From NCBI GenBank assembly GCA_964372875.1, contig CAYJTB010000004.1:4343-68342 (forward strand): a stretch of DNA of 64,000 nt. Direction: 5' to 3'. The notes under the pieces are model-generated. The model was not told where the DNA came from. It did not search any database and was given only the letters and a program-made list of their open reading frames with translations. The stretch is from an uncultured bacterium (GTDB lineage Bacteria > Omnitrophota > Omnitrophia > Omnitrophales > JACQLI01). Position 1 is the stretch's first letter; the number at the start of each line of letters is the position of its first letter. The position numbers and the translations under genes were made by a program. This document shows positions 3,837 through 23,644 of this stretch, piece after piece.

Positions 3837-6086
3837 TTGATGACAGACATAGCAATCACAGCACAGTTTTCAAGAGGTGAAGTTATCGCGCTATGGTCGG
3901 TTCTTGGGACCGCGGTAGCGGGTCTGATTTATGCTGGATTACTCATGGGGCAGGTGCTTCGCGAAAGCTGCGGCACTCCCGAGATGCAGAAGATCAGCGC
4001 CGCCATCCGGCTGGGGGCCAATGCCTACCTCAACCGTCAGTTTCGCGCCATAACCTTTCTCATCCTTCTTCTTACCGCGGCACTTTATTTTACCGTCGGT
4101 GAAAAATATATTGCGATCGGCCGCGCCTGTGCGTTTTTGATGGGCTCGATTTTTTCCGCGACCGTAGGATTTGTGGGAATGAATCTTGCGGTCAGAGGCA
4201 ATGTCCGTGTCGCTGCAGCCGCCAACCGGGGAAGTTTTAGCCAAGCCCTTAAAATTGCTTACCGTACGGGTACCATTACAGGAATGTTAACCGATGGCCT
4301 GGGTCTTTTCGGCGGCACGGTTATTTTTATGATTTACGGTGAAAGGGCCTATGAAATACTCCTCGGGTTTGGTTTCGGCGGAACCTTGATAGCCCTTTTT
4401 ATGAGGGTAGGAGGGGGCATTTACACCAAGGCCGCGGACGTGGGCGCAGACCTTGTCGGCAAGATTGAAAAAAATATCCCTGAGGACGACCCCAGAAATG
4501 CGGCAACCATTGCTGACAATGTGGGAGACAATGTAGGTGATTGCGCCGGAATGGCCGCTGATATCTTCGAATCCTACGAAGTAACGATTGTCTCCGCCAT
4601 GATTTTGGGTTGGGCCTCTTACGGACATAAGGGCGTTATTTTTCCCTTGCTGGTTCGTGCGATCGGTGTGATTAGTTCTATCATCGGGACCTATGCTGTT
4701 CGGACATCTGAGGAAGTCCGTAATGCCATGAAGGCCATCAATCTTGGATTTATTTTGTCGGCCTTAGTTTCCATTGTCGGTTTTATTATTGTCGGTTTCT
4801 TTTATCTGCGTTTCCCGGAATCAGGGGCCCTTCCTTTTTGGCACAGCTTTGGAATTCCCGGTCTTGACCTGCGGCCGGTTTGGACTACCCTCATAGGAAT
4901 TGCACTGGCAGTGGTGATTAATCGTTTGACGGAATACTACACCGATACAGCAAAGCCTCCTGTCCAGTCCATCGCGGAGTCCTGCCAAACAGGCCACGCC
5001 ACCACCATCATTACAGGGTTTGCCGTAGGTCTTGAAAGCTCGGTCTGGGCCGTGGTCGTGATTTCAGTCTCCATTCTTTTATCAGCTTTTGTTTATCACG
5101 GAACCAACCCTACTTTTATCGCCTATGGCGTGGCGATGTCAGGAATCGGACTCCTCACACTGACCGGCAATAATATTTCCATGGACGTTTTTGGCCCGGT
5201 CGCTGACAACGCCAATGGAATCGGGGAGATGGCCCATCTGCCCAAAGCGGCGAGACAAATCCTGGCGGATCTTGACGCCGTTGGAAATACGACCAAAGCC
5301 ATCACCAAAGGAGTTGCGATCGCCTCCGCTGTGGTAGCCGCCATTTCACTTTTTAATGCCTACATTACCGACATCGGCACGCTTACCCAACAAACCTATG
5401 ATCAAGTCGCATCGCTCCTTTCTATTTCTACGCACACGGTTTTTGTGGGACTTTTGATCGGAGGAGCCATTCCCTTTTTATTCAGTTCTCTTATGGTAAA
5501 AGCCGTGGGCAGAGCCGCCTTTTTAATTGTTAAAGAAGTGAGAGAACAGCTGCAGGATCCCGAAATTTGGGAAGGAAAAAAACTTCCGGATTATGCGCGC
5601 GTGGTTTCTATCTGCACCACGGCCGCACAAAAAGAATTGATCCGTCCGGGTTTATTGGCGATTCTTGCGCCTCTTCTGATCGGGCTGCTTTTGAAAAAAG
5701 AAGCGCTCGGAGGCTTCTTAGCGGGAATGATTCTCTCAGGCCAGCTTCTGGCCGTTTTTATGGCCAATGCGGGCGGTGCTTGGGATAACGCTAAAAAATT
5801 TATCGAAGACGGAAATTTTGGCGGAAAAGGCTCGGAGGCTCACAAGGCCTCAGTCACCGGCGACACGGTAGGCGATCCTTTAAAAGACACGGCCGGCCCG
5901 GCCTTGAATCCTTTGATCAAGGTGATGAATATGGTCGCACTCCTTTCCATCCCCATTGTGGTGCGTTATGAAAATTCGCCGGTCGCTTTTTGGATATCTG
6001 CCGTCATCGGAATCTTTTTGATTGTCATTCTTGTCCGCAGTCCCAAGCCGAGCAAAGAAGAACTCGCCATTATTCAGAAGGCATAA
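3837..6086 (+). CDS. hppA: Membrane-bound proton-translocating inorganic pyrophosphatase (V-type H+-PPase).
   Basis: [25 protein letters not shown] signature, DxxxxDxxxD motifs and about 16 TM helices. The GNTTKA motif (Lys rather than Ala) indicates the K+-independent subtype. Confidence 0.92.
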
Positions 6087-6099
6087 AAACTCGTCTTTG

Positions 6100-6187
6100 G
6101 TCATCCTGAGCAGGGCGACACGTCTTCGAGTGCGGCAAAGCCGCGAGGATCTGGGATCTTTCAGCCGCTTCGTGTCTTCAGGATGAC
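6100..6187. repeat. Palindromic repeat element, copy A, with termini GTCATCCTGAGC...TCAGGATGAC, immediately downstream of hppA.
   Basis: A 10-bp terminal inverted repeat forms a long hairpin. It shares internal blocks (CAAAGsCsGCGArGAwTCT and GATCTTTCAGCC) with copy B at 19368-19434. Confidence 0.6.
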
Positions 6188-6195
6188 TCCTTGCG

Positions 6196-6984
6196 TCAGA
6201 TTGCTACAAGCTTCTTTGGAGTATTACTACGCAATGACAATTTTTTTCTTCGGACCAGCCGGTTGCGAAGGGCGGTTTCAATCATCTGCGGAAGTTTTTC
6301 AGGCTTCACATCATAGAGAAGTGAACCGCGGTCTGCCAAAGATACCTTTCCGGTTTCTTCGGAGATAATGATCGTAAGGGCATCGGTCGACTCTGAAAGC
6401 CCAAGGCCCGCGCGGTGGCGTGTGCCGAGCTCCGTAGGAAGATCAAGCCGCTTAGAGAGCGGAAAGACAGCCCCTGCAGCCGCGATCAAATCCCTTTGAA
6501 TGATTATCCCGCCGTCATGGAGTGCGCCCGGGGGAGTAAAAACGGAAAAAATCGTTTCCTTCCGGATCTTGGCTTGCAAAGGAGTCGCTGCTTTAATCCA
6601 TGATTCCAGGGGGTCTTTTCTCTCGATCGCAATCAACCCGCCTTGCTTGGCCTCGGAGAGCATGCGGCAGACCTGGACAATTTCAAAAAGCGGTCCTTTA
6701 CCATTTTGGAGAAGGGAAAGGGATCTTTTATCCCGCCCTCTATTTTCCAAAAAAAGAGAAAGCGGCTTGCCGACGAGCCAAACAAAAAGACTTATCAACA
6801 CAGCGTTTTCCAAAACGCGCAGCCAAAGGGAGGTGGACCGCCAAATCCACGGGTGGACGGCGAGTGTAAAGACGAGAAATAAAAAGAGAACGAAAAATAG
6901 AAAGCGGTCTTCTAGTTTGTGAGACCGAAAAATCCGATAGGCGATCAGACCAAGGTTTAATAGAAAAAAAGAATAAAACATCAT
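6196..6984 (-). CDS. cdaA: Diadenylate cyclase (c-di-AMP synthase), membrane-anchored CdaA type.
   Basis: Three N-terminal TM helices followed by a DAC domain with DGGIII (DGA-type) and GTRHRAG (RHR) motifs. Confidence 0.85.
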   Translation of the reverse strand: MMFYSFFLLNLGLIAYRIFRSHKLEDRFLFFVLFLFLVFTLAVHPWIWRSTSLWLRVLENAVLISLFVWLVGKPLSLFLENRGRDKRSLSLLQNGKGPLFEIVQVCRMLSEAKQGGLIAIERKDPLESWIKAATPLQAKIRKETIFSVFTPPGALHDGGIIIQRDLIAAAGAVFPLSKRLDLPTELGTRHRAGLGLSESTDALTIIISEETGKVSLADRGSLLYDVKPEKLPQMIETALRNRLVRRKKLSLRSNTPKKLVAI

Positions 6985-7004: not shown

Positions 7005-7829
7005 TTATCGTCTTAAAAGAAATAATCTTTTAACCCAAGCTGAAATCAGCAATACGGCGCCGAAGGCACACACAATCGTTGCACCTGTGGGGAGGTCAAA
7101 AAAGTAAGACAGGGCAATTCCGATAAAACTGGTGACAATCCCGACGCTCCAACCCCAAAGAAGTCTGAGAGATAGGCTGTCCGTAAAAAGGATGGCGATT
7201 ACCGCTGGAACGATAAGAAAGGAAAAGACGAGCAGCACCCCCGCAATTTGAACTGAGCTTGTCACCACCAGTCCAAAGGTAAGATAAAAGACAAGATCCC
7301 AGGTTTTTACCGAGACGCCTTGCCGAAAGGCCTTTTCAGGTTGGATTGAAATCAAAAAGAAATTCCTGCGAAAGCACCAATGAAGAATTCCAACGCCGGC
7401 GTAAAGTAGGGCCATCTTCACAATGTCGTGCGCACTTACTAGAAGAATATTTCCGATGAGCATAAAACGGATGTGCTCATCACCTTCCGCAGTGCGACTC
7501 AAAATGAGAATCGCTAGGCCGGCGGAAACCGCGTAAACAATTCCAATAATGGCTTCCAAAGGAATTTTTTCTTTACGTGTCCGGGCCAGCGAAAAGAGAA
7601 CAGCGCCCAGCACGGTAGTTGCCAAAGAAGGCCAGTAAGTGCCGGGGCCGTGAAGATTCCAGCCGAAGCAAACGGCAAAGGTTGCTCCCAGGGCCGCCAT
7701 CTGGGCCAGTGCAAGGTCGACGAAGATCACTTTCCTTTCAATGACGTGAAGGCCCAAATAACCATGAATCCCCGTCAAGACCACGCAGGCAAGTAAAGGC
7801 TTCCACATGAATAAAATAAAATCGCTCAT
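7005..7829 (-). CDS. Metal (Zn/Mn) ABC transporter permease, ABC-3 family (ZnuB/TroC-like).
   Basis: About eight TM helices with ABC-3 family architecture. It overlaps the upstream substrate-binding protein gene by 4 nt. Confidence 0.8.
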   Translation of the reverse strand: MSDFILFMWKPLLACVVLTGIHGYLGLHVIERKVIFVDLALAQMAALGATFAVCFGWNLHGPGTYWPSLATTVLGAVLFSLARTRKEKIPLEAIIGIVYAVSAGLAILILSRTAEGDEHIRFMLIGNILLVSAHDIVKMALLYAGVGILHWCFRRNFFLISIQPEKAFRQGVSVKTWDLVFYLTFGLVVTSSVQIAGVLLVFSFLIVPAVIAILFTDSLSLRLLWGWSVGIVTSFIGIALSYFFDLPTGATIVCAFGAVLLISAWVKRLFLLRR

Positions 7830-11502: not shown

Positions 11503-12684
11503 TTAGGTAGGGACGCGATTTATCGCGCCCTGTGTGAGAAGGGCGCCGTGAATGGCGCCCCTGCGTTTTTTTGTGTTCGCAATGACACTTAGTTTTTCAA
11601 GCTGGTCGTCTTTCCATTTGAATTGGAGTCTTGGCCGGTCCTTGTAGAGCTTTTTCTGGAGGGCATAACTGGTAAGAAGAGGAAGGGAAATACTGGGTTC
11701 CACAAAGGCCATGGCGTAATTAGCCTTCTTATTTACTTTTCCCCAGGAACGGGCTTCGGAGAGCGTGCTTCCGCTAAGACCGCCCCAATGAGGGGCATCG
11801 GTCGTCACTTGGATTGCGTATTTATGACCACCGGTGTCCAGCCCAAAGATGTAGCTCATCACCACCGAGTCATTGATGTAGTTCTTAGGTACGCCGCCTG
11901 CGATATAAATCGCCGAAGTGCGTTTTGATTTCACCACGATTTGAGTGAGTTCGTAATTATCGCGGATCGAATCGATCGCAATCTTGGGCCGGCCGACTTT
12001 CCTGGCGACATAATAATGTTCGGTCAATCCGATCCCGATGGAGGAGTCATTGATTGCGGGGCAGAAAATAGGAACACCTTTTTTACGGGCAGTCACAAGA
12101 ATCGAATTTTCATCTTGGATCGTTTCGCTTAAAAGAGAAACAAATTCACGGCTTGAGTAGTTGCGGGGTTCGAGTGTATCGGCGAAACGGGCGATCGAAG
12201 TATCAAATTCTTGGAATTTTTCTTCATCGACATACGTATCATAAATCCGGTCAATCAAAAGATCGCGGAGTTGGGCATCATCGGCATCCGGGGTTCCCAT
12301 CGCATGAATGCCGCCTTTAGCCGCATAATAATCCTGATAAAGGATGGCGCCGGTGGAGACCACAACGTCGACCATATTGTAATGAATAAGATCGCGAATA
12401 ACTTTTCGGAGACCCGCGGCAATCAAGGGTCCGGCAAGGCCTAAGAGGATCGTGGGCCGCTCTTCGTCGGTGAGCATCCGGCCAAAGACCTGAGCCGCTT
12501 GGCCCAGATTGCGCGCTTGGATGGAGGCATCCGCATATTGGTCTAAAAGGCCGGCAACATTTTTAGTTTTTTCTAAATCAATTTGGCGGATAGGGGATGA
12601 AAGAAACTCGCGTTTCTTTTTTTTCATCTCAGGATCGCGGACCCGTTGAAAGCGCCAGTCGCTGTAATTTTTTGCCTGTTCCAC
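11503..12684 (-). CDS. Deoxyhypusine synthase family protein (DHS-like, possibly homospermidine-synthase-like).
   Basis: GGVPKN and APHWGGLSGSTLSEARSWGK motifs typical of the deoxyhypusine synthase fold. Confidence 0.6.
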   Translation of the reverse strand: MEQAKNYSDWRFQRVRDPEMKKKKREFLSSPIRQIDLEKTKNVAGLLDQYADASIQARNLGQAAQVFGRMLTDEERPTILLGLAGPLIAAGLRKVIRDLIHYNMVDVVVSTGAILYQDYYAAKGGIHAMGTPDADDAQLRDLLIDRIYDTYVDEEKFQEFDTSIARFADTLEPRNYSSREFVSLLSETIQDENSILVTARKKGVPIFCPAINDSSIGIGLTEHYYVARKVGRPKIAIDSIRDNYELTQIVVKSKRTSAIYIAGGVPKNYINDSVVMSYIFGLDTGGHKYAIQVTTDAPHWGGLSGSTLSEARSWGKVNKKANYAMAFVEPSISLPLLTSYALQKKLYKDRPRLQFKWKDDQLEKLSVIANTKKRRGAIHGALLTQGAINRVPT

Positions 12685-18843: not shown

Positions 18844-19365
18844 ATGGTTATCGCATCAAGTTCTGTATCTTGGGATGAGTTACATTGGTATGCCCTTTAC
18901 ACAAAAAGCCGGCATGAGAAAGTAGTTGAGGAAGGGCTTCAAGGTAAAGGAATCAAGACCTTCCTTCCAACCCGGAAACTTATTCGTCATTGGACGGACC
19001 GGGTCAAGCATATCGAGGAACCCATCTTTAAGGGTTACCTTTTCGTTCAAATCCCCTTGAGAAAACAATTGGAAGTCTTGGAAACCCGCGGCTCCGTTCG
19101 TCTGATTGGGTTTAATTCTTTTCCAGTTCCTATTCCTGAAAAAGAGTTAGAGACTGTCCGAAAATTTATTCAAGAGGACATTGCAATTGATCCCTACCCT
19201 TATTTAGCGGTGGGGAATCGGGTCTATGTCCGTTCCGGCCCGTTCAAAGGGGTCGAAGGTTTTATTGTTCGTAAAGACCGGCATACGCGCCTCGTGATGT
19301 CACTGGATCTTTTATTTCAATCGATCTCTGTCGAAATCGACGAAGCGCTTGTAGAAAAAATATAG
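18844..19365 (+). CDS. NusG-family operon-specific transcription antiterminator (RfaH/UpxY/LoaP-like paralog).
   Basis: An NGN domain (WYALYTKSRHEKVVEEGL...PIFKGYLFVQ) plus a C-terminal KOW (GNRVYVRSGPFKGVEGFIVRKD). It sits immediately upstream of the long plus-strand glycan locus. Confidence 0.7.
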   Translation: MVIASSSVSWDELHWYALYTKSRHEKVVEEGLQGKGIKTFLPTRKLIRHWTDRVKHIEEPIFKGYLFVQIPLRKQLEVLETRGSVRLIGFNSFPVPIPEKELETVRKFIQEDIAIDPYPYLAVGNRVYVRSGPFKGVEGFIVRKDRHTRLVMSLDLLFQSISVEIDEALVEKI

Positions 19366-19367
19366 CC

Positions 19368-19434
19368 GTCATTCTGAGCCGCCAAAGGCGGCGAAGAATC
19401 TTAGATCTTTCAGCCCTTCGGGCTTCAAGATGAC
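19368..19434. repeat. Palindromic repeat element, copy B, with termini GTCATTCTGAGC...TCAAGATGAC and an internal GCCC-UUCG-GGGC hairpin.
   Basis: It shares termini and internal blocks with copy A (6100-6187) and begins 3 nt after the NusG-like stop codon. Confidence 0.6.
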
Positions 19435-19569
19435 AAGAATGCCCCTCGCTAAGTCCTTCTGGGACTGAGAGGGCGAAGCTGTGTAAAGCAATGAAAAATA
19501 TAAAATTAAGAATGGAAAATGAACAGCGTATGCAATTTTGCATTTTACATTTTAGATTTTGAAATTTTT

Positions 19570-21546
19570 ATGTGCGGAATCGCAGCCATATTTGCTTACC
19601 ACTACGTAGCTCCTGAGGTCAATCGGGAAGAGCTCCGGCTTATAAGAGATGCCATGGCTTCCCGGGGCCCCGACGGTGTAGGCGAGTGGTTTTCTGAAAA
19701 TGGGAAGGTCGGCTTGGGACACCGCCGGCTTTCCATTATTGATCTTTCTCCCAGAGGCGCCCAGCCGATGCAAACGGAAGACGGAAAAATTGTCGTGAGC
19801 TTCAACGGAGAAATTTATAACTATCGCGAGTTGCGTTCAGACCTCGAAAACAAAGGTCGTATTTTCAGATCGAATTCAGATACCGAAGTCCTGCTTCATC
19901 TTTATCAATTAAAAGGCCAGGCAATGGTTCACGATCTTCGGGGAATGTTTGCCTTTACATTGTGGGACGGCAGAAAAAATTCTTTGTTCCTTGCACGCGA
20001 TCCCTATGGGATCAAACCTCTTTATTATGCGGACGATGGCTGGACGGTTCGAGTTGCCTCTCAAGTCAAAGCACTGCTAAAAAGCGACAAGGTTTCAAAA
20101 TTAGCCGAGCCCGCCGGAACCGTGGGTTTTTTTCTGATGGGCAGCGTTCCCGAACCCTACACGCTTTATCAAGAAATCCGTCAAGTCCCCGCAGGGAGTT
20201 ATGTTTGGGTGGATGAGCTGGGACCGTCATCACCGAAAAGATATTTTTCGATTGCGGAGATTTTAACGTCATCGCGAGGAGGCCGTAGAGATCCCTCGCT
20301 CGTCATTGCGAGCCCGACGAAGTCGGACGAAGCAATCTCGGGCTCGGGACAGGCTCCGCAATCCGGTTCTGAGATTGCTTCGGCATCACTTGAAACACCG
20401 CCTCGCAATGACGTAAGTGTTCACTCCGCGCTTCTCGACTCCGTTCGCCATCATTTTGTTTCGGACGTTCCGGTGGGAATATTCCTTTCCGGCGGAATTG
20501 ATTCGGGATCCTTGGTATCTCTTGCAAGAGAGACCGGAATCCAAGATCTGCAAACCATGACTTTGGCATTCGAAGAATTTTACGGAGGTTCTTTGGATGA
20601 GATGCTTTGGGCAGAAACCGCCGCCCGAAAATTCGGCACCCGGCATACCTCACATACTCTTACGGAAAATGAATTCAAAAAAGAATTACCTCACTTTTTT
20701 GAATCCATGGATCAGCCGACAATTGATGGAGTGAATACTTATTTTATAAGTAAGGCCGCCCACGAATCGGGATTAAAAGTTGCTTTGTCAGGCCTTGGCG
20801 GAGATGAACTCTTTGGCGGCTACTCAACTTTTCAGGATATTCCTCGGCTGGTTGGGGCATTGGCCTTTCCCTCAAGAATTCCATTTTTGGGCGACGGTTT
20901 TCGTCATTTGTTTTCTATTCCAAGCCTACGACCAAAGTCGTTACACCCTAAATATGCGGGCCTTCTCAAATACGGTGCAAGCTATTCAAGCGCCTACTTT
21001 CTCCGACGCGGGCTTTTCATGCCGTGGGAATTAGACTCGGTGATGGGCAAAGAGATGGTTCACGAAGGATTAAACAGGCTTCAATTACTGCCGTCGATAA
21101 AAAGGACGCTTCAGCCCGAACCCAAAGATCCTTTTGCCAAAGTTGCCACCTTGGAGTCTTCCTTATATATGCGCAATCAACTGCTCCGTGATACCGATTG
21201 GGCGGGAATGGCTCACTCTTTGGAAGTGCGTACACCTTTCGTCGACTCAACGCTTCTAAAGAAACTGGTCCCTTTTTTAGTTTCTGAAAATCATCCTCAT
21301 AATGCCGGAAAAAAAATTCTCACCGGAAGTCTTAGCAATCCTTTACCCGGAGAAATTACCCGTCGTGCGAAAACAGGTTTTTCTGTCCCCGTGGAAAAAT
21401 GGTTGGAAAAAGGCGGCGAATTAGATATGTGGCAGCGAATCCCCAGCTTGCAAAGCCAAGGGACTCCGTGGGCCAGGCGGTGGGCTTATGTCGTGATGTC
21501 AACTTTCAATAATGCAGTCGTAAAAGAGGAGGCGAGTGTCACATGA
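19570..21546 (+). CDS. Asparagine synthase (glutamine-hydrolysing)-like amidotransferase, paralog 1. It contains an in-frame palindromic-element insertion.
   Basis: MCGI N-terminal nucleophile Cys, an Ntn glutaminase domain and an SDVPVGIFLSGGIDSG PP-loop. The ORF-track start at 19519 is upstream of the real MCGI start. Confidence 0.85.
   Translation: MCGIAAIFAYHYVAPEVNREELRLIRDAMASRGPDGVGEWFSENGKVGLGHRRLSIIDLSPRGAQPMQTEDGKIVVSFNGEIYNYRELRSDLENKGRIFRSNSDTEVLLHLYQLKGQAMVHDLRGMFAFTLWDGRKNSLFLARDPYGIKPLYYADDGWTVRVASQVKALLKSDKVSKLAEPAGTVGFFLMGSVPEPYTLYQEIRQVPAGSYVWVDELGPSSPKRYFSIAEILTSSRGGRRDPSLVIASPTKSDEAISGSGQAPQSGSEIASASLETPPRNDVSVHSALLDSVRHHFVSDVPVGIFLSGGIDSGSLVSLARETGIQDLQTMTLAFEEFYGGSLDEMLWAETAARKFGTRHTSHTLTENEFKKELPHFFESMDQPTIDGVNTYFISKAAHESGLKVALSGLGGDELFGGYSTFQDIPRLVGALAFPSRIPFLGDGFRHLFSIPSLRPKSLHPKYAGLLKYGASYSSAYFLRRGLFMPWELDSVMGKEMVHEGLNRLQLLPSIKRTLQPEPKDPFAKVATLESSLYMRNQLLRDTDWAGMAHSLEVRTPFVDSTLLKKLVPFLVSENHPHNAGKKILTGSLSNPLPGEITRRAKTGFSVPVEKWLEKGGELDMWQRIPSLQSQGTPWARRWAYVVMSTFNNAVVKEEASVT
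20301..20413. repeat. Palindromic repeat element, copy C (CGTCATTGCGAGC ... GCTCGCAATGACG), inserted in frame within the AsnB-like coding sequence.
   Basis: A perfect 12-bp terminal inverted repeat, a nested inner inverted repeat (GAAGCAATCTC / GAGATTGCTTC) and a CCGAC-GAA-GTCGG hairpin. It encodes a low-complexity S/A/P/G-rich linker that is absent from the paralog at 40455. Confidence 0.65.
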
Positions 21547-22570: not shown

Positions 22571-23644
22571 ATGAAAATTTTAGCCTTGGTAACGGAGGCC
22601 TATGGAGGAGCGGGAGGAATCGCCAGGTTTAATCGCGATCTTCTTAAGGCGCTGTCTCAAATCGAACCTCAGCCAGAGATCGTAATATTACCGCGCGTTC
22701 GCCCCTACGGGGCTCGCAATGACGGATTGGTAGGTAAATTAGGTTACGCTACTGCGGCCTTAAAAACATTTTGGCAACAAGGCCCTTTCGATTTAATTTT
22801 CTGCGGCCATCTTCACTTAGCGCCTTTGGCCGCGCTTCTTTCACGAATGAAGAAAACGCCGGTTTGGCTTCAAATTCACGGCATCGAGGCATGGCAGAGA
22901 CCGTCTGATCTTCTCGCCCGGGCGGCGGAGAGCTCAGATCTTGTCACTGCGGTAAGCCGCCATACCCGAAGAGAATTTTTAGAGTGGGCCTCTATCGATC
23001 CTGGGAAAGTGCGCGTTCTCCCCAATACCGTGGATGAAAATTTTACCCCCGGTCCCAAACCGGACTACCTGCTCAAGCGTTACGGATTAGAAAATAAAAA
23101 AATTCTTTTCACCCTCTCCAGGTTGTCCTCTCAAGAAAAATATAAAGGCCATGACCGGGTTATCCGTGTCCTGCCACGCCTCCTGGAAAAATTCCCCAGC
23201 CTCGTTTATACGATCGGAGGATCGGGCGATGATCAAGCCAGGCTCCAGGCGCTAGCCGGGGAGTACCGATTAAAGGATGCGGTGATGTTTCTGGGTGAAA
23301 TCAAAGAGACCGAGCTTGCCGATCATTACCGCATGGCGGATCTTTTTGTGATGCCGAGCACGGGAGAAGGATTTGGGATCGTATTTCTTGAGGCGGCCCG
23401 CTCAGGAATTCCTGTTGTCGCTGCCGGGGCGGGAGGAGCTTTCGATGCCCTGCTGGAAGGAAAGATCGGGCGCTTGGTGAATCCGGATGATGCTGATGCG
23501 CTGGCGCAAGCCATTGAAGAAACTTTAGCTTCCCGTACCCATTCCCCCAAACTTGTTCAGCGATTTTCTTCCGCCAACTTTCACCAGTTGGTTGAAACTT
23601 TGATGAATGACCGGCTTGTTTTGACGGGTGTTGAAAATGGTTAG
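22571..23644 (+). CDS. Glycosyltransferase family 4.
   Basis: C-terminal EGFGIVFLEAARSGIPVVA (E-x7-E) GT-B motif. Confidence 0.75.
   Translation: MKILALVTEAYGGAGGIARFNRDLLKALSQIEPQPEIVILPRVRPYGARNDGLVGKLGYATAALKTFWQQGPFDLIFCGHLHLAPLAALLSRMKKTPVWLQIHGIEAWQRPSDLLARAAESSDLVTAVSRHTRREFLEWASIDPGKVRVLPNTVDENFTPGPKPDYLLKRYGLENKKILFTLSRLSSQEKYKGHDRVIRVLPRLLEKFPSLVYTIGGSGDDQARLQALAGEYRLKDAVMFLGEIKETELADHYRMADLFVMPSTGEGFGIVFLEAARSGIPVVAAGAGGAFDALLEGKIGRLVNPDDADALAQAIEETLASRTHSPKLVQRFSSANFHQLVETLMNDRLVLTGVENG

Follow-up and report, generated by a model that had tools for sequence, protein, structure and literature searches.

In the window, that is, the whole 64-kb stretch of DNA analyzed here, three short palindromic elements (copies A, B and C) are probably non-autonomous doublets of a hairpin repeat with a CGTC tag, belonging to what Chenal et al. 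call Ssn-related motifs. In each of them, a hairpin module is followed by a spacer and then by a module in reverse complement (Table 1). A preliminary description had placed three copies at these positions, and their termini can be read directly in the sequence. Beyond that description, we find that every copy is a doublet of a shorter hairpin unit, that the hairpin loops look more like DNA triloops than like RNA tetraloops, and that a partner nuclease of the family, the GIY-YIG protein Ssn, is known.

Table 1. Repeat copies, their modules, weaker candidates and the genes around copy A
Feature	Position	Strand	Description
Membrane pyrophosphatase gene	3837-6086	+	convergent with the cdaA-like gene
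Copy A	6099-6187	.	head-to-head doublet; GTCATCCTGAGC from 6100, ATGAC to 6187
Copy A, left module	6098-6153	+	about 20 extra nt in the loop
Copy A, right module	6152-6188	-	degenerate stem
cdaA-like gene	6196-6984	-	convergent with the pyrophosphatase gene
Isolated terminus-like fragment	11574-11587	-	GTCATTGCGAAC; adjoins a GTAG-type REP pair; profile E = 1.7
Copy B	19367-19434	.	head-to-head doublet; GTCATTCTGAGC from 19368, ATGAC to 19434
Copy B, left module	19367-19404	+	CGTCATTCTGAGC-CGCCaaaGGCG-GCGAAGAATCT
Copy B, right module	19401-19436	-	
Possible extra partial module	20266-20297	+	adjoins copy C upstream, in frame; CGTCATCGCGAGG...CCCTCGC
Copy C	20301-20413	.	head-to-head doublet; CGTCATTGCGAGC from 20301, CTCGCAATGACG to 20413
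Copy C, left module	20300-20340	+	
Copy C, right module	20369-20414	-	
Possible solo remnant	22698-22724	-	within a GT4 glycosyltransferase gene; GTCATTGCGAGC-CCCgtaGGGG-CGAAC

Copies A, B and C share one tagged hairpin module

The proposed relatedness of the three copies through their shared termini is borne out by two measures. The terminal motif GTCATYSYGAGC (allowing at most one mismatch) occurs 9 times in the 64-kb window compared to 1.85 expected occurrences, a count reached in none of 100 shuffles, and a profile built from the six half-elements recovered all six of them (E = 2e-7 to 3e-4), with the next match in the window at E = 0.046. The internal blocks said to be common to copies A and B are likewise present.

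The module consensus reads (C)GTC-ATTSY-GAGC-(GNA triloop or small GC hairpin)-CGA-RSAAT-CT. All six window modules retain the GTC tag (as CGTC in three, and as GGTC, AGTC and TGTC in the others), a stem starting with AT, and a C right after the stem (AAT-C or GAT-C). The tags of each doublet face outward, so that each DNA strand presents one module in a recognisable orientation. In the canonical stem nine positions align, two of which form a G.A/A.G step (ATTCTGAGC versus GCGAAGAAT), and only five Watson-Crick pairs are predicted at its base. The canonical loop is a 3-nt GNA, and the commonest module form among the matches listed from other genomes is 26-27 nt long (e.g. GTCATTCTGAGCGAAGCGAAGAATCT); in the window, nested hairpins or longer inserts take its place.

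Modules of other genomes (among the matches listed, from at least 120 loci) provide a view of how this structure is maintained. In 141 of 144 of these modules, SY is the complement of RS, with CT/AG in 63, CC/GG in 42 and GC/GC in 36. The search pattern left both degenerate dinucleotides free and complementarity was not required, and this degree of complementarity indicates that the stem is under selection. The base preceding GTCATT is T or C in 126/144 modules of the same set. Moreover, an ATGAC is found at most 130 nt downstream in 81 of 142 modules among the matches listed versus ~12% by chance, which suggests that doublets are the rule.

With respect to folding, the left and right modules of copy B form nested DNA hairpins (z = -3.7 and -3.2, respectively), and the left module of copy C has the same shape. 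Both modules of copy A fold poorly as single DNA units, making A the oldest-looking copy. When considered as entire doublets, A, B and C yield long hairpins (RNA fold z = -2.1, -4.1 and -5.7). A UUCG tetraloop (GCCC-UUCG-GGGC) had been assigned to copy B; the actual hairpin is AGCCC-TTC-GGGCT, a triloop, and this assignment is corrected here.

Three weaker candidates were found in addition to the clear copies (Table 1). The possible partial module next to copy C has a one-mismatch terminus at 20268 and a weak profile match (20267-20286, E = 0.38). The possible solo remnant carries an exact 12-mer terminus (profile E = 0.046) and encodes the peptide RPYGARND, in a loop of the GT4 glycosyltransferase that is variable in the L002 ortholog. 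The isolated fragment at 11574-11587 might have arisen by chance or be left over from a former copy.

Copy B is identical in the independent assemblies L209 and L210, and copy A is reproduced in part in the independent assembly L207, as far as its contig reaches; as these assemblies derive from two other sequencing runs, A and B are not assembly artefacts. Presence/absence polymorphism of A or B was not seen among the available assemblies, and neither further copies nor an ssn gene were found on the short same-population contigs reached via window proteins. With only three clear copies in 64 kb, one of them (A) degenerate, the family may not be active here.

Intergenic copies lie directly 3' of stop codons

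Copies A and B are intergenic and, as described previously, situated immediately 3' of stop codons. Copy A starts 13 nt past the pyrophosphatase stop codon and ends 8 nt short of the cdaA-like stop codon, and copy B starts 2 nt past the stop codon of a gene for an UpxY-like antiterminator, upstream of asnB.

This location, together with the stability of both copies as RNA folds, would be expected of ordinary Rho-independent terminators or mRNA-stabilising 3' hairpins which act as RNA and resemble each other incidentally, and many REPs are transcribed according to the description given by Di Nocera et al. (PMC3733652). We consider this explanation unlikely, however, as A and B lack a T-tract and no terminator-like site was called at either of them. 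The same tagged module is furthermore found within coding sequence (copy C), in many phyla and around GIY-YIG genes, and SsnA does not act on RNA (PMC11893778). Likewise, no Rfam family matched the window at gathering thresholds, and permissive thresholds applied over the copies gave one unrelated weak match inside asnB. Lastly, the inner loop is GAA or AAA on the GTC-tagged strand in four of the six window modules whichever the direction of transcription, as would be expected if the constraint acts on the DNA.

The site occupied by copy B was compared with the corresponding sites in two relatives, L001 (79% identity) and L003, in which the flanks are conserved and different palindromic inserts are present. 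At these homologous sites (L001 1930-2050 and L003 5630-5740), a GTTAC/GTAAC-rich element is observed in L001 and an AAAAGG-rich one in L003. Counting the CGTC doublet of the window, three relatives hold three unrelated palindromic inserts at the same place, which suggests either that insertions are targeted to this site or that it tolerates them very readily.

Within the interval between the UpxY-like gene and asnB, we also observed a block (GCCCCTCGCTAAGTCCTTCTGGGACTGAGAGGGCGAAGCTGTG, 19441-19483) that is conserved in L001 and L003, its neighbouring sequence being replaced; this block could be a leader or an antiterminator-loading element of the polysaccharide operon. Two antisense ORFs of 116 and 93 aa (20303-20653 and 19262-19543, both on the minus strand) overlap copies C and B, respectively, and contain repeat-encoded peptides such as RHCEAVFQVMPKQSQ. 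Both are most likely false gene predictions to which the palindromes gave rise.

Copy C is an in-frame insert in an asparagine synthase linker

Next to the intergenic copies, a copy inside a coding sequence had been proposed, and copy C indeed lies in frame in the gene of an asparagine synthase homolog (true start at 19570, the codon opening MCGIAAIF; stop at 21546). The insert occupies the variable linker that joins the glutaminase domain to the synthase domain, where it encodes ...SLVIASPTKSDEAIS...EIASASLETPPRND... In an alignment of 13 AsnB homologs, most lack the corresponding segment, P0002 (79% identity) among them. Homolog P0010 (locus L003, 60% identity) also has a doublet of this family in the linker, one of its own (GTCATCCTGAGC...GAAGGATCT, followed by AGATTCTTCGG...CTCAGAATGAC), and a further homolog, P0045, has module-like peptides at the linker and at the C-terminus, as read from the protein alone.

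A repeat of another type was also observed in the L003 AsnB gene, namely an in-frame GTAG-type REP at ~7140-7275 (residues ~455-500; GGGCGCAATGAATTGCGCCCCTAC), which encodes the peptide GRNELRPY.

The module is spread over many bacterial phyla

It had been suggested that conservation of the termini in other genomes should be examined. To this end, the module pattern GTCATTSYGAGC-N(3-30)-ARSAATCT was scanned in species-representative genomes and in viral contigs. At least 120 loci were obtained in the species-representative genomes, and the matches listed belong to many phyla, including Nitrospirota, Chloroflexota, Planctomycetota, Acidobacteriota and Desulfobacterota as well as Patescibacteria, Verrucomicrobiota, Bacteroidota, Proteobacteria and others. 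The pattern gave no match in 2.9 million viral contigs, and a literature search with the 12-mer termini returned unrelated primer matches only.

In a lake Deltaproteobacteria MAG (L058, 1194-1227), a module is identical to the left module of copy B over 34 nt (GTCATTCTGAGCCGCCAAAGGCGGCGAAGAATCT), indicating that the nested-hairpin variant is common to distant genomes.

Modules flank small GIY-YIG genes in other genomes

At one of the module loci, a module abuts the start codon of a small ORF, and a profile search taking in all ORFs of the at least 120 listed module loci revealed five such ORFs. Both of those scanned against Pfam (two of the five) matched the GIY-YIG domain, and all five are located between inverted modules on the left and on the right, among the matches listed.

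A second sample consisted of 80 metagenome loci picked by GIY-YIG protein similarity alone. In these loci, a GTCAT is present at most 130 nt upstream in 65/80 (background 12.5%), an ATGAC at most 170 nt downstream in 61/80 (background 20%), and tags are found on both flanks in 53/80. Upstream and downstream modules share at least eight of nine identical bases in 36% of comparisons within a locus compared to 5% between loci. The GAGC type of the window occurs on both sides in 29 of the 68 loci with full flanks, a share that is no population estimate, the 80 loci having been seeded from module-adjacent proteins; the remaining full-flank loci have NTS-like, CGTC-3-like or further types, and the canonical NTS sequence itself flanks some of the GIY-YIG homologs (e.g. 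L182). Inverted modules of the same type thus surround ssn (cd10448-like GIY-YIG) genes, an arrangement seen in other genomes only: neither the 64-kb window nor the ~5 kb of additional flanking sequence obtained from other assemblies contains an ssn homolog.

Ssn homologs at loci of the GAGC type are encoded, for example, at L048 (4732-5127) and L059 (5078-5395). At L059 (~4820-5660), a module-flanked ssn cassette is located within a pheT-like gene, at its 5' end, and ~130 bp of the target occur twice, once on either side of the cassette; the upstream copy runs into a stop codon at the junction, and the downstream one continues into the intact gene.

Two further explanations were considered. 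Elements of 68-113 nt with terminal inverted repeats of 12-13 nt could be classical MITEs derived from an insertion sequence with a DDE transposase, having terminal inverted repeats and target-site duplications. We regard this origin as highly improbable: no direct target duplication abuts A, B or C, each arm is a hairpin with a covarying stem, unlike DDE terminal repeats, and no transposase ORF lies beside the modules, the GIY-YIG gene being the only recurrent neighbour among the matches listed. REPINs, i.e. doublets of GTAG-type REPs mobilised by a RAYT (Y1 HUH) transposase, have the same architecture of two inverted hairpin units and a spacer. They too are a very remote explanation of copies A-C, as the tag is (C)GTC and not GTAG, and the gene flanked across genomes encodes a GIY-YIG nuclease. 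In the description of the CGTC repeats by Di Nocera et al., moreover, a dedicated transposase is apparently lacking and no gene for a tyrosine transposase is flanked by them (PMC3733652). A GTAG-type pair present in the window (11507-11566) is separate and of different sequence.

That pair belongs to another repeat superfamily than copies A-C. It is a GTAG-tagged, REP-like pair (with a further part at 11575-11586) that reads GTAG-GGACGCGAT-tt-ATCGCGCCC, followed by the inverted GGGCGCC-gtgaat-GGCGCCC and then by a T-run. The minus-strand ORF 11503-12684 runs through it and thereby acquires the tail ...VIANTKKRRGAIHGALLTQGAINRVPT, which is probably repeat-derived.

Proposed mode of action and wider implications

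Taken together, these results favor Ssn-related hairpin doublets, and published biochemistry suggests how such elements might behave. The module is a DNA hairpin in which the GTC tag remains unpaired and precedes the stem on its 5' side; the stem opens with ATTSY/RSAAT and continues with a tandem G.A step, the interior is a small GNA triloop or a nested GC hairpin, and a C directly follows the stem. On single-stranded DNA, this hairpin may be bound by a nuclease of the Ssn family, encoded elsewhere in the genome, which would cut a few nt 5' of the tag; a homolog of Ssn is accordingly presumed to be present in the source genome. An ssn gene flanked by inverted modules shows an insertion-sequence layout, and the short doublets may be gene-less derivatives of this unit. 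The copies of the window are found where insertion is tolerated, just past stop codons and, in frame, in a flexible protein linker, and any effect on mRNA 3' ends would be secondary.

A more far-reaching possibility, which we put forward only tentatively, is that the GAGC type (GTCATTSYGAGC...RSAATCT) constitutes a major Ssn-linked subfamily of many phyla that escapes the published SRM pattern, and that its doublets are actively copied via a hydrolytic GIY-YIG single-stranded DNA nuclease and have repeatedly colonised the same linkers in frame (AsnB, in at least two and possibly three lineages). If true, this would be a transposon-like system operating without a covalent-intermediate transposase. 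Irrespective of this, copies A-C leave the known picture of such repeats unchanged. Since a subtype found in many phyla is not seen by the published pattern, the reach of the Ssn/repeat partnership is probably underestimated. In addition, the repeats yield spurious small ORFs and unexpected peptide inserts in enzymes, so that recognizing them prevents mis-calls in annotation, and the recurrent in-frame inserts in the AsnB linker offer natural material for studying how hairpins choose sites or survive at them.

Comparison with known repeat systems

In REPIN/RAYT systems, reportedly described by Bertels and Rainey in 2011, inverted doublets of hairpin units likewise form a long hairpin, and one small nuclease gene is again found between such units. 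They differ from the present elements in combining a GTAG tag with a Y1 HUH transposase, which acts through a covalent intermediate, as compared to the CGTC tag and the hydrolytic GIY-YIG nuclease here. With the Rickettsia RPEs, the elements share the insertion of palindromic repeats in frame at permissive positions of genes, by which a peptide segment is added; they differ in sequence subtype and host lineage, and the window has one clear intragenic copy in 64 kb.

The preliminary description had classed the elements as a non-autonomous palindromic family of the REP/RPE/MITE type. This classification is supported and can be narrowed, as the elements match the superfamily of CGTC-tagged REPs defined by Di Nocera, De Gregorio and Rocco (2013, BMC Genomics 14:522; PMC3733652), which, as described there, includes two Rickettsia RPE types (RPE-4/RPE-6) as well as Neisseria dRS3. 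In their description, these repeats have a CGTC tag (TGTC and CCTC variants being allowed), a stem of 8-9 bp starting with AT, a loop of 4-5 nt and a short tail, form mostly head-to-head dimers near ORF 3' ends and are in some cases intragenic in frame (PMC3733652). The window copies agree with this in the unpaired (C)GTC tag, the AT-start stem and the short 3' tail starting with C, and equally in their head-to-head dimer arrangement, their positions near ORF 3' ends (between convergent genes or genes of the same direction) and the in-frame intragenic copy. The stem, in contrast, is composed of ATTSY, a tandem G.A step and GC, while that of the CGTC superfamily is fully paired, GC-rich and 8-9 bp long; in place of the 4-5 nt loop of the superfamily there is a GNA triloop or a nested hairpin (13-30 nt); the tail is CTN and not CCA; and the encoded peptides are of the form VIASxxxxEAIS, compared to VIPAKAGI, VIAGLDPAIH and VIPWLDHGI in the CGTC families.

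Another close counterpart is the NTS/SsnA system. Chenal et al. (2025, Nat Commun 16:2388; PMC11893778) reported that the Neisseria repeat NTS (CGTCATTCCCGCGMAVGCGGGAATCYRG) and related motifs flank the small GIY-YIG gene ssnA across bacteria, and hence the association between repeat and GIY-YIG gene found here was already known. Binding of SsnA is restricted to the single-stranded DNA form of the hairpin and depends on the C after the palindrome, while its cut falls a few nt upstream and depends on the 3 nt before the palindrome; in Neisseria, the NTS/SsnA system lowers the integration of repeat-bearing transforming DNA, and the NTS-ssnA-NTS layout is IS-like, domestication having been raised as a hypothesis (PMC11893778). 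The NTS has the same module layout as the present elements (CGTC-ATTCCCGC-loop-GCGGGAAT-C). As for the Ssn-related motifs (SRMs), the GTC and the trailing C, both critical for SsnA, are found in all six window modules, and modules of the same type flank Ssn-like genes as inverted repeats in other genomes; the difference is that the window holds no ssn gene. The published SRM pattern, HGTCWYN(0-2)YYVSBRHN(0-5)WNVSBRGN(0-2)RNCYNB, matched none of the six window modules, nothing else in the whole window and not the canonical 26-nt module form, whereas control NTS sequences were matched. It misses these modules because of their G.A step and loop lengths. The GTC and the trailing C are nevertheless kept. 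We therefore place the elements among the CGTC/Ssn-related repeats, as a subtype that the published pattern does not cover.
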